A stretch of 64,000 nucleotides of DNA from Myxococcales bacterium (GTDB lineage Bacteria > Myxococcota > Myxococcia > Myxococcales > 40CM-4-68-19), in NCBI GenBank assembly GCA_036513415.1, contig DATBZA010000107.1:37773-101772 (forward strand), read 5' to 3'. Numbering within the stretch: the first letter of the stretch is position 1; every line of letters starts with the position of its first letter. The notes under the pieces were generated by a model that saw nothing but the letters and a program-made list of their open reading frames with translations, was not told the DNA's origin and searched no databases. The translations under genes were made by a program, and so were the position numbers. This document shows positions 24,133 through 30,321 of this stretch, one piece after another.

Positions 24133-27100
24133 ATGGTGCCACCATCGGGATGCAGGCCGCAGACACGGTGGGAAGACGATGAGTATGTCCTTTCGCGCAT
24201 CCATCGCGACGGGGAGGCCCGTCTCCTGGTGCGGAGTCGCTTCGGCGAACGGCCGGAGACCCTCGCGCGCCTCGAGCACGCGTACGAGCTGCGGGACGTT
24301 CTGGACCGCGCGTGGGCGACCCGTCCGCTGTCGCTGGAGCGGCAGGATGGCGGCGACGCGCTGCTGCTCGAAGACCCGGGTGGAGAGGTCCTGTCGACGC
24401 TGGTTGGGCGCCCTTGGGAGTCAAGGGTCTTCCTGCGGGTCGCGATCGGCATCGCCGAAGCGCTGCGCCAGCTGCACAAGCAAGGCATCGTGCACAAGGA
24501 CGTCAAGCCGGCGCACATCCTCGTCGATGTGGGTACCGGCCAGGCCTGGCTGACGGGGTTCAGCATCGCCTCGAGGGTCCCGCGAGAGCGACAGGCTCCT
24601 CCCGAGATCATCGCGGGCTCGCTGGCCTACATGGCGCCCGAACAGACGGGCCGGATGAACCGCTCCGTCGACTCGCGAAGCGACCTCTACGCCTTCGGCG
24701 TCACTCTTTACGAGATGCTCACCGGCGAGCTTCCCTTCACGGCCGCGGACGCGACTGAGTGGATCCACTCCCACATCGCGAGAGCGCCCAAACCGCCCGG
24801 CGAGCGCGTGCAAGGCATCCCCGCTCCAGTCGAAGAGCTCGTCTTGAAGCTCCTCTCCAAGACTCCCGAGCACCGCTACCAGACCGCCGCGGGCGTGGAG
24901 GAGGACCTGCGAAAATGTCTGACCGAGCTCGAGTCATCCGGCCGCGTCGCTCCCTTCCTCCTCGCCTCGCAGGACGTACCTGATCGGCTTCTCATTCCGG
25001 AGCGGCTCTACGGCCGGGAACGCGAGGTCGAGACCCTGCTCGGGGCTTTCGAGAGGGTCGTGGCGAAGGGAACGCCGGAGCTCGTGCTCGTGTCCGGAGC
25101 GCCGGGCGTCGGCAAGTCCTCGGTGGTCAACGAGCTTCAGAAATCGTTGACCGTTGCACGCGGCCTGTTCGCGAGCGGAAAGTTCGACCAGTACAAGCGT
25201 GACATTCCTTATGCGACCTTCGCGCAGGCCCTGCGGAGCGTCGTCCGCACGATGTTGAGCCAGAGCGACGCCGAGCTCGGTCAGTGGCGCGATTCCATTG
25301 GACGCGCGCTCGGCCCGAGCGGGCAGCTGATCGCGAACCTCATTCCGGAGATCGAGCTCATCGTCGGCAAGCAGCCTCCTGTGCCGGAGCTCCCGCCGCA
25401 AGAGGCGAAGAACCGATTCGAGATGGTGTTCCGGCGGCTCCTCGGCGTCGTTGCCACAGAGGAGCATCCGCTCGTGCTCTTCCTCGATGACCTGCAATGG
25501 CTCGACGCGGCCACCCTCGGCCTTCTCGAGCACCTCGTCACGCACCCGGAGGTCCGGCATCTCCTCATCATCGGCGCCTACCGCGACAACGAGGTCGGAG
25601 AGGCCCACGCGCTCTCGAAGACGCTCGAGCGCATCAAGGCGGCCGGCCCGAGGGTGAACGAGATGCTCGTCGCACCGCTCGACGTCCATGACGTCGGGCG
25701 GCTGTTCGCCGACGCGCTCGTCTGCGACGCCGAGCGCGTTCAGCCTCTTTCGCACCTCGTGCACGAGAAGACCGGCGGCAATCCCTTCTTCGTCATCCAG
25801 TTCGTCGCCGCGCTGTCGGACGGAAAGCTCATCACCTTCGATCCGATCCATCGCCGTTGGATCTGGGACTTGCCTGGCATTCGCGCGAGGAACTTCACGG
25901 ACAACATCGCAGATCTGATGGTCGACCGGCTCGCCCGGCTATCGCTCACGACGCGCGATGCCTTGAAGGAGCTCGCCTGCCTGGGAAACAGCGCGCCGGC
26001 GTGGATGCTCGGGGCGGCTCGCGGGGGTCCCGATGCGGCTGTCGATGCAGCCCTCTCCGAGGCCGCCTACGCGGGACTCGTCGTCGATCAGGGCGGCGCC
26101 TGGTCCTTCTTGCACGATCGCATCCAGGAGGCCTCGTACGCGCTCGTCCCGGAGGGCGACCGCGCACGCGTTCACCTGGGCATCGGCCGCGCCCTCCTCG
26201 CGCGTACGCCCGCAGAGAAGCGCGACGATGCGATCTTCGACATCGTCCACCAGCTCAATCGCGGCGCCGCGCTGTTCGTGTCGCCAGAGGAACGCCGGGA
26301 GGTCGCCGGGCTGAACTTGATCGCGGGCAAGCGCGCCAGGTCGGCGGCCGCCTACGCCTCGGCGCTCGGCTATTTCAACTGCGGCGCCGCGCTGCTTCCC
26401 GAAGACTCCTGGGAGCGCTGCTACGAGCTCGTCTTTGGCATCGAGCTCGCTCGCGCCGAATGTGAGTACATGAGCGGCGCGGCCGCGCCCGCGGAAGATC
26501 GGCTCTCGATGCTGTCGCGCCGCGCGCGAGACCGGATCGACCTGGCCAGTGTCGTCTGCGTCCAGATCAATCTCTTTGGGGTGACGGAACGCCATCAGCG
26601 GACGGTGGAGACTTGCCTCGACTACATGCGCCAGGTCGGAATCGAATGGTCCCTCCAGGCGACGGACGACGAAGTGCGGCGCGAATACGAGCGTCTGTGG
26701 AACGAGATCGGAGATCGACCGATCGAGACGTTCCTGGACCTGCCGCGGACGAGCGATCTCGAGTGCCGAGCGACGATGGATGTGCTCGGCAGCCTTCTGG
26801 GTGTTGCGTATGCGACGAACGGGAATCTGCTCGCCCTTGTGGTCCTTCACATGACGCGTCTCAGTCTCGAGCGCGGGAACACCGACGCGTCGGCGATCGC
26901 TTACTCGTTTTTCGGAGGGGCGATCCTGGGGCCTCGTTTCGGAAGGCACCAGGAAGGCTTCCGCTTCGGACAGCTCGGCGTCGATCTGGTCGAGAAGCGC
27001 GGGCTGGACCGATTCCGGGCGCGCGTATGGATGGTCTTCGGCATGAGCGTGATTCCCTGGACACGCCATCTCCGCGCGAGCCGCGAGATCTTCCAGCGCG

Positions 27101-30100: not shown

Positions 30101-30321
30101 CCGGCCCGGTCGCGATGGAGCCGAAGAAGCGAACGCTCGACGAGCATTTGGTCGGCGAGGAGAAGAAGATCATCGAAGCCGCCCTGTCTGAGGCGGGCGG
30201 CAAGGTCGCGGGTCCTTCTGGCGCGGCGGTAACGCTGGGAATGCCTGCAACGACCCTCTACTCGAAGATCAAGAACATGAAGATCGACAAGCGCCGCTTC
30301 AGGCGGTCTCGAGGCGAGTGA
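24133..30321 (+). CDS. 2,062-aa multidomain regulator: degenerate Ser/Thr kinase domain + STAND/AAA_16 NTPase + TPR-like region + GAF + 2 PAS + sigma-54 AAA+ + Fis-type HTH
   Basis: Kinase-like region: VHKDVKPAHIL about 24490, LTGFSIAS about 24550, YMAPE. STAND region: Walker A GAPGVGKSS about 25095-25120, Walker B LVLFLDDLQWLD about 25470-25500. GAF spans about 27970-28500. PAS1 spans about 28560-28880 and PAS2 about 28909-29285. AAA+ region: GETGTGKE about 29449-29472, GAFTGA 29590-29607. HTH TLGMPATTLYSKIKNM about 30230-30280. The ORF is uninterrupted. Start chosen at ATG 24133 (GGAG upstream). Confidence 0.9.
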   Translation: MVPPSGCRPQTRWEDDEYVLSRIHRDGEARLLVRSRFGERPETLARLEHAYELRDVLDRAWATRPLSLERQDGGDALLLEDPGGEVLSTLVGRPWESRVFLRVAIGIAEALRQLHKQGIVHKDVKPAHILVDVGTGQAWLTGFSIASRVPRERQAPPEIIAGSLAYMAPEQTGRMNRSVDSRSDLYAFGVTLYEMLTGELPFTAADATEWIHSHIARAPKPPGERVQGIPAPVEELVLKLLSKTPEHRYQTAAGVEEDLRKCLTELESSGRVAPFLLASQDVPDRLLIPERLYGREREVETLLGAFERVVAKGTPELVLVSGAPGVGKSSVVNELQKSLTVARGLFASGKFDQYKRDIPYATFAQALRSVVRTMLSQSDAELGQWRDSIGRALGPSGQLIANLIPEIELIVGKQPPVPELPPQEAKNRFEMVFRRLLGVVATEEHPLVLFLDDLQWLDAATLGLLEHLVTHPEVRHLLIIGAYRDNEVGEAHALSKTLERIKAAGPRVNEMLVAPLDVHDVGRLFADALVCDAERVQPLSHLVHEKTGGNPFFVIQFVAALSDGKLITFDPIHRRWIWDLPGIRARNFTDNIADLMVDRLARLSLTTRDALKELACLGNSAPAWMLGAARGGPDAAVDAALSEAAYAGLVVDQGGAWSFLHDRIQEASYALVPEGDRARVHLGIGRALLARTPAEKRDDAIFDIVHQLNRGAALFVSPEERREVAGLNLIAGKRARSAAAYASALGYFNCGAALLPEDSWERCYELVFGIELARAECEYMSGAAAPAEDRLSMLSRRARDRIDLASVVCVQINLFGVTERHQRTVETCLDYMRQVGIEWSLQATDDEVRREYERLWNEIGDRPIETFLDLPRTSDLECRATMDVLGSLLGVAYATNGNLLALVVLHMTRLSLERGNTDASAIAYSFFGGAILGPRFGRHQEGFRFGQLGVDLVEKRGLDRFRARVWMVFGMSVIPWTRHLRASREIFQRAFQASLDTGDVGYAAYCKFLAVAARLGSGDLLDDVQREAESALSFARNVRWVGHIEYLTIQLALIRTLRGLTPRFGFLDDEASDESRFEPVRLAQNQTSSAGWTLGPWWYWIRKLQARFHAGETADALEAASRARQLLPATPNHFELAEFHFYSALSHAAASTRLEPIREHHEQLAHWAESCPENFDSREATVAAEIARLEGRELDAERLYEKAIRLAREHELVQIEAIGNELAARFHLDRGYETIAHAYLRAARRCYLRWGALGKVAQLDEHHPGLEEPAPPGPTTTADRLDLATVIEVSQAASGEILLEKLIEAVMVHAVEHAGAERGLLVLLRDGEPWIEAEATTAKDRVAVSLRHEIAGPGELPESMLRYVIHSRESVILDDASTQNQFSADEYIRQKRSRSVLCLPLIIVEPGDRVERRATVCGVLYLENNLASHVFTPARTAVLKVLASQAAISLDNAHLYADLKAAEEKTRQAERKVRRVVDNIPALVWTASPDGLSNFFGQRWLEYTGLSPEETLGLGWTATIHPDDLEQLQATFQRAKDEGKPAEAEARMRRADGAYRWFLGRCVPLRDGSGQIEGWYGSATDIEDRKQAEQSLRRSEAYLAQAQLLSHTGSFGVRVSPDEIVWSKETFRLLGLDEASKPSLETVLQHTHPEDVALVRRAVEEATQRGAGMDFEHRLVMSDGSVKHVHVIADAVRDESGNLELVGAVQDITSSKKAFEEIRALRDQLYQENVALREEVDKASMFEDIVGSSPPLRAVLSRVSKVAPTDSTAFITGETGTGKELIARAIHRRSPRASRAFVAVNCAIIPKELIASELFGHEKGAFTGALQRRVGRFELAQGGTLFLDEVGEIPLGTQVGLLRVLQERRFERVGGTQPVEIDVRVIAATNRDLEAAMNAGSFRRDLFYRLNVFPIQVPSLRERREDIPMLVKYFVDRFATKAGKRFSRINKKSLNLLQSYDWPGNIRELQNVIERSVILCDSKEFAVDEHWLAPGPVAMEPKKRTLDEHLVGEEKKIIEAALSEAGGKVAGPSGAAVTLGMPATTLYSKIKNMKIDKRRFRRSRGE

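Follow-up and report, generated by a model that had tools for sequence, protein, structure and literature searches.

Can a sensory region of the kind that usually drives a histidine kinase act on transcription directly? The question is raised by a gene in a stretch of 64,000 nucleotides (nt) from a Myxococcales bacterium (GenBank assembly GCA_036513415.1, contig DATBZA010000107.1, positions 37,773 to 101,772; hereafter the window), which encodes in one polypeptide a kinase-like domain, a STAND-type nucleoside triphosphatase (NTPase), helical repeats, GAF and PAS domains and an AAA+ activator of sigma-54 RNA polymerase. An earlier note, made from the sequence alone, had drawn attention to this combination. 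Computational analyses of the gene, its homologues and its neighbourhood suggest that the product, here referred to as the giant, is probably a cytoplasmic one-component sigma-54 activator that is held in an off state by a helical linker, released by its sensors and able to activate a predicted promoter at position 30343.

The gene for the giant sigma-54 activator occupies positions 24133..30321 of the + strand as a single unbroken reading frame of 2,062 codons with zero internal stops, and ends in a stop codon at 30319-30321. The chosen start, an ATG at 24133, is supported by a GGAG located 9 nt upstream and by the conserved N-terminus of a homologue (P0001) of the same length, 2,062 amino acids (aa), and 95% identity. 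The open reading frame (ORF), Pfam matches and homologues define a protein with the domain order kinase-like, AAA_16/STAND, helical repeats, GAF, PAS1, PAS2, helical linker, sigma-54 AAA+ and Fis-type helix-turn-helix (HTH). Its characteristic motifs are GAPGVGKS (aa 322), LFLDDLQW (aa 450), GETGTGKE (aa 1773), GAFTGA (aa 1820) and LFLDEVG (aa 1841). All of the motifs quoted in the earlier note were recovered.

Domains of the giant protein

The C-terminal part of the protein is a complete output cassette of the NtrC1/NifA/ZraR type, consisting of PAS2, a linker, an AAA+ domain and a predicted Fis-type HTH. Pfam, NCBIfam, the family alignment and Foldseek all place the sigma-54 AAA+ domain and its lid at aa 1745-1983 (29365..30081, + strand), where a Sigma54_activat match (aa 1745-1912, E 7e-72) covers the whole PF00158 profile (positions 1-168 of 168) and is followed by AAA_lid_14 (aa 1917-1983). 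At least 90% of the 121 homologues of the family alignment share the motifs GETGTGKE and LFLDEVG, and the GAFTGA loop is invariant or nearly so. NCBIfam returned partial, sub-threshold matches to NifA, FhlA and NorR, which cover the C-terminal 350 aa only. The Fis-type HTH (aa 2010-2047; 30160..30273, + strand) was assigned from a borderline HTH_8 match, from conservation in at least 90% of the 121 homologues, many of which match HTH_8, and from an AlphaFold model of three helices with a predicted local distance difference test score (pLDDT) above 90. The enhancer-binding module described in the earlier note is present, and here comprises AAA+ core, GAFTGA loop, lid and a predicted HTH.

Ahead of this output module lie a GAF domain (aa 1299-1450; 28027..28482, + strand; Pfam) and two PAS domains, both supported by Pfam, alignment and AlphaFold. 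PAS1 (aa 1472-1587; 28546..28893, + strand) is the last domain shared with histidine-kinase paralogues, and PAS2 (aa about 1610-1707; 28960..29253, + strand) is the first domain of the cassette that has been swapped. In the AlphaFold model of the C-terminal part, PAS1 is followed by a helix, PAS2, an unbroken helix of 40 residues that enters the AAA+ domain (aa 1709-1748; 29257..29376, + strand; also seen in alignments), the lid and the three-helix HTH. A Foldseek search with this model yielded sigma-54 activators only (DmpR, ZraR, NtrX, NtrC1, LuxO, FleQ and NifA), with 38-54% identity and E values of about 1e-21 to 1e-25. The linker, QLYQENVALREEVDKASMFEDIVGSSP, aligns with that of NtrC1, KLRKENELLRREKDLKEEEYVFESP, and with that of NifA; all three contain the motif ENxxLRxE, and the structural alignments to 1ny5/4l4u and 9qq6 reach into the linker. 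In NtrC1 and DctD, the linker is a coiled coil that holds the ATPase as an inactive dimer. The likeness to NtrC1/ZraR-type linkers that the earlier note had thought worth examining is borne out for NtrC1 by the continuous helix, the shared motif and the alignment.

The second ATPase of the chain is a STAND-type P-loop NTPase, whose core matches AAA_16 (aa 291-480; 25003..25572, + strand; Pfam E 1.6e-49) and is recognised by AlphaFold and Foldseek as well. Its Walker A (GAPGVGKS, with the Lys at aa 328) and Walker B (LVLFLDDLQW) motifs are intact, and both GAPGVGKS and LFLDDLQW recur in 90% or more of the 121 homologues. The N-terminal AlphaFold model (pLDDT 82.9, predicted TM score 0.67) contains an alpha/beta core from aa 296 to ~560, a winged-helix/arm region at aa about 560-660 and helical repeats that begin at aa 662 and continue at least to aa 1200, where the model ends. 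In Foldseek it matches best 6mfv, a STAND protein of known structure whose sensor is made of TPRs (813 aligned columns at E 1.9e-11), and next PknB. Both engines thus carry intact, family-conserved Walker motifs, in agreement with the statement of the earlier note that two oligomerising ATPases sit in one chain. From the intact motifs we infer that the STAND module may switch and oligomerise in a nucleotide-dependent manner. The N- and C-terminal halves of the giant were modelled separately, and the models carry no geometry between modules.

The region between the NTPase and the GAF domain is all-helical and TPR-like (aa about 662-1290; 26116..28002, + strand; AlphaFold to aa 1200 and the Foldseek match to 6mfv). 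The earlier note had described about 900 aa of TPR-like repeats; the helical character holds, but the distance from AAA_16 to GAF is 819 aa and no Pfam TPR model reaches significance in the window protein (best E 0.35). Some homologues of the giant or of its sensory region match Pfam TPR_CHK1, and the label TPR-like rests on these homologues and on structure, since the window protein itself lacks a significant TPR match.

Defence systems often contain large STAND NTPases with TPR-like sensors, which brings up the alternative that the giant is an anti-phage STAND protein (Avs-like) with an AAA+ effector. PADLOC returned domain-level matches to PD-T4-6 kinases and to RtcR/PspF-type AAA+ modules; these cover the generic kinase and AAA+ domains only, and for the STAND or sensor part there was no match to a system-specific model. 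Moreover, the protein ends in a full sigma-54 activator that includes an HTH, the same sensory region normally drives histidine kinases, and the neighbouring genes encode regulators, efflux components and glycogen enzymes rather than defence functions. We consider this alternative highly improbable and rejected it because the PADLOC matches concern generic domains.

The N-terminal domain has a Hanks-type kinase fold (aa about 10-270; 24160..24942, + strand), as indicated by Pfam, alignment with PknB and AlphaFold. The Pfam Pkinase match (aa 101-253) covers profile positions 101-256 only, corresponding to the C-lobe, and the alignment with PknB begins only at ~aa 97, with the C-lobe alone aligning. 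HRDVKPAN and DFG of PknB align with HKDVKPAH and TGF in the window protein, in which the Asp and Lys of the catalytic loop are retained and the Asn is replaced by His. In the 121-sequence alignment, the family consensus reads HKDIKPAN and LTGFG, and the Asp of DFG gives way to Gly in 90% or more of homologues. Neither the Gly-rich loop (GxGxxG) nor the VAIK Lys is present in the N-lobe of the window protein or in the consensus of the 121 sequences. The APE region is nearly invariant across these homologues, and the substrate-binding region is highly conserved. AlphaFold preserves the kinase fold, with a disordered activation segment (aa 147-179), and the modelled domain superposes on PknB with TM scores of 0.7-0.79 (Foldseek). 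We predict that this domain is a pseudokinase; the earlier note recognised the kinase fold in what it called a Ser/Thr-kinase-like domain but missed the loss of key catalytic residues.

According to a 2025 review of bacterial pseudokinases, members of the CP1 family are cytosolic, are always joined to a COG3899 ATPase and are often joined to FhlA or PAS domains, and their function is not known (PMC12599244). The architecture of the window protein fits this description; the comparison was made with the description, not with the models of the review.

Distribution of the fused form and exchange of outputs

To place the giant among its relatives, we distinguish the fused form, which ends in the sigma-54 cassette, from the chassis, by which we mean the sensory region that it shares with histidine kinases. 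In a census of the 120 best protein clusters, at least 117 combine Pkinase, AAA_16, GAF, PAS and Sigma54_activat in one protein; these proteins are 1,830-2,567 aa long and carry the NCBI name ‘sigma 54-interacting transcriptional regulator’. The giant-type clusters come mostly from Acidobacteriota. Among species-representative genomes, the fused form was found in 12 metagenome-assembled genomes (MAGs) of Acidobacteriota, including Terriglobia, Bryobacteraceae, Acidobacteriaceae and Pyrinomonadaceae, and in one MAG of Verrucomicrobiia, which together contribute 13 fused ORFs, 12 of them complete. No giant of these genomes exceeds about 50% identity to the clade of the window protein; a partial relative with 82% identity comes from a MAG labelled Deltaproteobacteria bacterium.

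These data also bear on whether the long reading frame could be an artefact, that is, a chassis gene fused to a separate activator gene by chimeric assembly or by a frameshift. Such a false fusion is conceivable because separate activator genes do adjoin chassis genes at five loci (L004, L045, L061, L046 and L030). The proteins of the at least 117 clusters share one architecture from end to end on independent contigs, P0001 is of equal length, and three further fused ORFs, from a search seeded on a downstream gene described below, add to the 13 of the species-representative genomes. GC content is even along the whole ORF, and the junction is a conserved PAS2-linker rather than a remnant of an intergenic region. 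Because full-length homologues exist on many separate contigs and MAGs, with contigs from JGI, ENA and NCBI, we conclude that the ORF is almost certainly not an artefact, and the uninterrupted reading frame reported in the earlier note stands.

The chassis itself most often has a different ending. HATPase_c is present in 53 of the 69 complete chassis ORFs of species genomes, and Sigma54_activat in 12. We also classified, by BLAST, motif and a Pfam sample, the 150 best chassis representatives from a library of 1.84 billion proteins clustered at 50% identity and lacking domain annotation. Among these best 150 matches, one has a sigma-54 module and 75 look like histidine kinases by motif; of 26 sampled from the remainder, 24 have HATPase_c, 10 of them together with a receiver domain (REC). 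Hosts of the chassis include Bradyrhizobium, Paraburkholderia, Cupriavidus and Ensifer. Sigma-54 activation is a minority output of the chassis, and the histidine kinase is its normal ending, as the earlier note had stated.

How the two outputs relate is illustrated by a closely related pair of opposite type. The chassis of P0021 (sigma-54 type) and L004 (histidine-kinase type) are 81% identical, which equals the identity of the nearest sigma-54/sigma-54 pair over the same region. The two align closely across GAF and PAS1 as far as the helix DIEDRKRAEE and then diverge: L004 runs directly into the H-box of a dimerisation and histidine phosphotransfer (DHp) domain, whereas P0021 continues with PAS2, linker, AAA+ and HTH. 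Chassis that are 81% identical thus bear different outputs, with a breakpoint in the helix after PAS1, supporting an exchange of outputs and the view of the earlier note that a histidine-kinase output has been replaced. The part of the giant N-terminal to this point, from pseudokinase to PAS1, is a sensor of about 1,600 residues. The window protein is up to 57% identical to bacterial members of the histidine-kinase type, and Pfam found neither HisKA nor HATPase_c in its ORF; as the chassis is shared and the output lacks these domains, the protein is not a histidine kinase.

We considered whether the chassis acquired its sigma-54 output only once and rejected this, as a neighbour-joining tree of the chassis, which carries no support values, mixes sigma-54 and kinase types. 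Pairwise identities agree with this intermixing: the closest relatives are of opposite output in the pairs P0021/L004, L038/L045, L006/L034 and L036/L046 (71-81% identity). The AAA+ modules of giants are 63-85% identical to one another across phyla. One cassette has probably been joined to related chassis at the signalling helix more than once, and repeated swapping of outputs between paralogues is likely, though not proven.

The earlier note knew of no characterised example of this architecture. Our literature search likewise found no functional study of it, no paper in which a sigma-54 activator is linked to a protein-kinase domain or to a STAND module, none pairing a STAS protein with such an activator and none specific to the activators of Acidobacteria. 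The architecture is not unusual in databases: among the 120 best clusters, 117 or more carry it. The closest published mention is the remark that CP1 pseudokinases often bear an ‘FhlA’ domain (PMC12599244). The fusion is uncharacterised yet abundant in databases, where it has been annotated automatically, and it is made wholly of known parts. That such parts should be joined is unsurprising in principle, given the existence of sigma-54 activators and of STAND regulators such as MalT.

Downstream promoter-like element, STAS-like gene and neighbouring regulators

A sigma-54 promoter-like element of the -24/-12 type, TGGCATGACCGTTGCT, lies at 30343..30358 on the + strand, 22 nt past the stop codon of the giant gene and 16-17 nt ahead of the next start codon. 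It departs from the sigma-54 consensus at one position, and the same element occurs with zero mismatches in L080, the locus of a 93% relative, despite an adjoining deletion of 25 nt. The gene that follows (30375..30656, + strand) encodes a small STAS-like protein of 93 aa, identified by a weak STAS_2 match, orthologues and conservation of the neighbourhood. Elements with at most two mismatches were found within 150 nt upstream of the STAS-like gene at 6 of the 12 independent loci from genomes and at 33 of the 74 from metagenomes, and elements with at most three mismatches at 54 of the 74. Among random 150-nt windows, the corresponding frequencies are 1.7% (at most two mismatches) and 8.8% (at most three).

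The STAS_2 match of the window protein (E 6e-5, 23.5 bits) is under the cut-off of 29.2; nine of 13 orthologues match STAS_2 (best E 1e-7), and the family profile reaches TM1442 and SpoIIAA at E about 0.03. Members of the family are about 85-93 aa long, begin with a fixed M(L/F)(K/R)I and share two conserved Cys and a YIREWI motif. Orthologues with 42-85% identity adjoin 13 giant genes, and a weak cut-off match was found beside a 14th (L072); none was found beside the roughly 55 kinase-type chassis genes examined. The gene is present in the window and at L080, L082, L083, L084, L001, L002, L005, L025, L038, L054, L060, L070 and L085-L164.

A reverse search seeded on the STAS-like gene retrieved at least 587 metagenome loci. 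Of the 65 loci with enough upstream DNA, 47 have the C-terminal end of a giant-type AAA+/HTH module (65-71% identity) encoded ahead of the gene. The 21 complete activators found upstream are 359-2,450 aa long, and just three have the pseudokinase-STAND chassis; the sensors of the others are GAF-PAS3, PAS6, MASE1-PAS-GAF-PAS, GAF-PAS-PAS-GAF, a single PAS, REC-PAS2 or none. The STAS-like gene is therefore paired more often with smaller PAS/GAF activators than with the giant. With so many other sensors on the activators ahead of this gene, the giant represents a single sensor variant within a modular subfamily of activators, whose defining features are the output cassette and the STAS-like partner gene. 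The earlier note, which was right about the cassette itself, missed this subfamily with its alternative sensors and conserved partner gene.

STAS proteins such as SpoIIAA and RsbV are classical substrates of phospho-switches, and the kinase-like domain might accordingly be an active Ser/Thr kinase that acts on the STAS-like protein or on the activator, as in kinase-coupled partner switching. The retained fold, the catalytic Asp of the HxD motif, the APE motif and the conserved substrate-binding region would fit such a role, and a gene for a SpoIIE-type phosphatase lies near the giant gene in L084. We regard an active kinase as very unlikely nonetheless: at least 90% of homologues have Gly for the Asp of DFG, the Gly-rich loop and the VAIK Lys are missing, and the catalytic-loop Asn has become His. 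The position equivalent to the phosphorylated Ser58 of SpoIIAA is Ala in the window protein and Gln, Ala, Arg, Glu or Gly in orthologues, never Ser, and the kinases that normally phosphorylate STAS proteins are of the GHKL type and not of the Hanks type.

Beyond the STAS-like gene, the window encodes a two-component pair (30814..34704, + strand), comprising a Reg_prop/Y_Y_Y/HisKA_3 kinase (30814-34074) and a REC-LuxR regulator (34075-34704), which was identified by Pfam and whose two gene types recur 3' of the STAS-like gene at other loci. This is followed by a short, sensor-less sigma-54 activator of ~376 aa (35433..36563, + strand), identified by domain search and likewise recurring downstream at other loci. 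The short activator has GAFTSA instead of GAFTGA, a variant shared with L080. Sensor-less activators of this kind are 320-400 aa long, have at most 60 aa ahead of the AAA+ domain and resemble PspF. They occur downstream of the giant gene at nine loci (the window, L080, L081, L083, L001, L002, L005, L060 and L070). Counted by genes 3' of the STAS-like gene, there are 21 loci with a sensor-less activator, 11 with TolC-like genes, 10 with a HisKA_3 kinase, six with a REC-LuxR regulator and six with a sigma factor of the extracytoplasmic function (ECF) type; the window unites the STAS-like gene, the kinase, the REC-LuxR regulator and the short activator. Sensor-less activators also lie 1-5 kb 3' of histidine-kinase-type chassis genes, namely at the five loci with separate activator genes named above, and no receiver domain was detected in these five activators.

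This arrangement suggests an alternative to a giant that works by itself: it may act mainly together with the sensor-less activator, either in mixed AAA+ rings, as HrpR and HrpS do, or by controlling the short activator through the STAS-like protein in a partner-switch or feedback loop, similar to PspA-PspF and HrpV-HrpS. The giant would then supply sensing, and the short activator part of the ring or the DNA targeting. Consistent with this, a sensor-less activator follows the giant or the STAS-like gene at the loci counted above, the STAS-like gene sits between giant and short activator behind the sigma-54 promoter-like element, and the GAFTSA loop of the window's short activator might need a partner with a canonical loop. 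The short activators are 43-76% identical to one another and about 50% identical to giant modules, and they form no tight co-evolving clade; moreover, giant loci without a sensor-less activator exist (L003, L036, L038, L054, L082 and L084). We therefore think it rather unlikely that the giant depends mainly on such a partner and prefer the view of a one-component activator.

Several features of the surroundings deserve mention. Directly upstream of the giant gene is a divergent operon (18507-23904, - strand) encoding DUF1207, a membrane-fusion protein (MFP) and an AcrB-type resistance-nodulation-division (RND) transporter; it is kept in L080 (positions 1-2641), and an RND operon is also close to the giant gene in L081, the locus of the 82% relative. 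In the 228-nt gap between the giant gene and this operon, inspection by eye gave as sigma-54 candidates only GG-N10-GC elements with wrong spacing or a weak -12 part, and no sigma-70-like site was found there. A terminator-like hairpin with a T-rich tail (24033-24056, + strand), partly conserved in L080, lies in the leader of the giant gene ~80 nt before its ATG.

Elsewhere, the window is rich in signalling genes, with at least five histidine kinases and three genes for ECF-type sigma factors. A third sigma-54 activator, of the classical REC-AAA+-HTH (NtrC) type, is encoded at 10329-11771 on the - strand; by tblastn, its AAA+ domain and that of the giant share 67% identity, and over the whole output module the value is 58%. 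A second intergenic sigma-54-like element, TGGCACGTCCGCTGCA, with one mismatch, is located at 52460-52475 (+ strand), 21 nt ahead of a start codon and upstream of an efflux operon (52497-58152) with a TolC-like outer-membrane efflux protein, an MFP and AcrB. As TolC-like genes also recur 3' of the STAS-like gene, this operon may be sigma-54-dependent. A region of lower GC content (48001-50000; 0.577 compared with about 0.65 elsewhere) spans the gap between the genes for DUF4118-PAS and REC-PAS histidine kinases.

Proposed function and relation to known systems

We propose that in the resting state the helices of PAS2 and the linker would keep the AAA+ domain of the giant in an off-state dimer that does not form a ring, as in NtrC1 and DctD. 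Signals perceived by GAF, PAS and the helical sensor arm of the STAND module would lift this block, with the STAND module acting through nucleotide exchange and self-association. The AAA+ ring would then form on DNA bound by the HTH, and ATP hydrolysis would remodel sigma-54 RNA polymerase. Such a route would include no phosphorelay step, and the pseudokinase would serve as a binding or allosteric module and not as an enzyme. The likely target is the predicted sigma-54-type promoter at 30343-30358, which would drive the STAS-like gene and, in the window, probably also the HisKA_3 kinase, the LuxR-type regulator and the second activator. The giant would then stand at the top of a local regulatory cascade, because this promoter would drive downstream regulators.

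Several observations weigh against this proposal. The HTH_8 match of the window protein (E 2.3e-4, 21.2 bits) is just below the cut-off of 22. The distance of 16-17 nt from promoter-like element to start codon implies a short leader, and there is no clear ribosome-binding site in the window sequence. A search upstream of the 30343 element for an enhancer or inverted repeat yielded one weak palindrome only (30102-30123), which lies within the 3' coding region. Past the STAS-like gene the neighbourhood varies, as at L082 and L084, and two further activators encoded in the window could serve the same promoter. Finally, any contribution of the STAND module to activation is one that we purely infer. 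Taking these points together with the complete output cassette, we still favour a linker-restrained one-component activator of the 30343 promoter as the probable function. A more elaborate version, in which STAND oligomerisation templates or gates the AAA+ ring and the STAS-like protein and sensor-less activator complete a feedback or partner-switch circuit specific to the subfamily, is a speculation that we hold to be doubtful. If true, one polypeptide would mechanically link two oligomerising ATPases of different kinds, in a transcription activator of the signalosome type.

Each part of the giant has counterparts among known systems. Its AAA+ domain with GAFTGA loop, lid and predicted Fis-type HTH is shared with the activators NtrC1/DctD and NifA/FhlA/NorR/DmpR, and it is 38-54% identical to ZraR, NtrC1, FleQ, NifA and DmpR with the same fold. 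The one-component layout is that of NifA, FhlA, NorR and DmpR, and the helical linker with ENxxLRxE is that of NtrC1 and NifA. Known sigma-54 activators have REC, GAF, PAS or V4R sensors, whereas the giant has a sensor region of ~1,700 aa with a pseudokinase and a STAND NTPase; we know of no characterised sigma-54 activator with either.

From the N-terminus to PAS1, the domain order is the same as in bacterial CP1 histidine kinases and in the fungal kinases Chk1, Mak2 and Mak3. These fungal hybrid kinases are characterised relatives of the chassis (PMC5383687, PMC9069115). Kinases of the CP1/Chk1 type end in DHp and catalytic (CA) domains with or without REC; the giant instead has PAS2, linker, AAA+ and HTH, and no phosphotransfer would be needed.

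A STAND NTPase, an arm, a helical-repeat sensor and a DNA-binding output are joined in one chain in MalT, AfsR, GutR and the family of large ATP-binding regulators of the LuxR type (LAL), as they are in the giant. MalT activates transcription through self-association driven by its ligand and ATP. MalT and LAL proteins use a LuxR-type HTH at sigma-70 promoters, in contrast to the ATP-driven AAA+ machine for sigma-54 in the giant, in which GAF, PAS and pseudokinase domains are also interposed. The locus further recalls PspF/PspA and HrpR/HrpS/HrpV/HrpG in having a PspF-like sensor-less activator. It is also pspA-like in that a small gene sits behind a predicted sigma-54 promoter adjoining the activator gene; pspA is a target of PspF whose product also feeds back on PspF. 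The small protein of the giant locus is STAS-like, however, and not like PspA or HrpV, and the giant carries its own sensors.

Sigma-54 activators are the textbook example of ATP-driven transcription activation, and to our knowledge the control of activator ring assembly is understood for few types of sensor, namely REC, GAF, V4R and the trans-acting PspA. The giant would add a further sensor type, a nucleotide-driven oligomerisation switch, and offers a test of whether one oligomerising ATPase gates another. Hundreds of soil bacteria, and fungi as well, use this chassis to drive histidine kinases, and its direct transcriptional read-out here would lend itself to an easy reporter assay. The comparative result may outweigh that for the single gene, in that it points to a subfamily of activators, abundant yet unstudied, in Acidobacteria and further soil phyla, with swappable sensors, a STAS-like partner behind a predicted sigma-54 promoter and frequent downstream regulators. 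This subfamily may provide an entry point into the sigma-54 regulons of soil bacteria.

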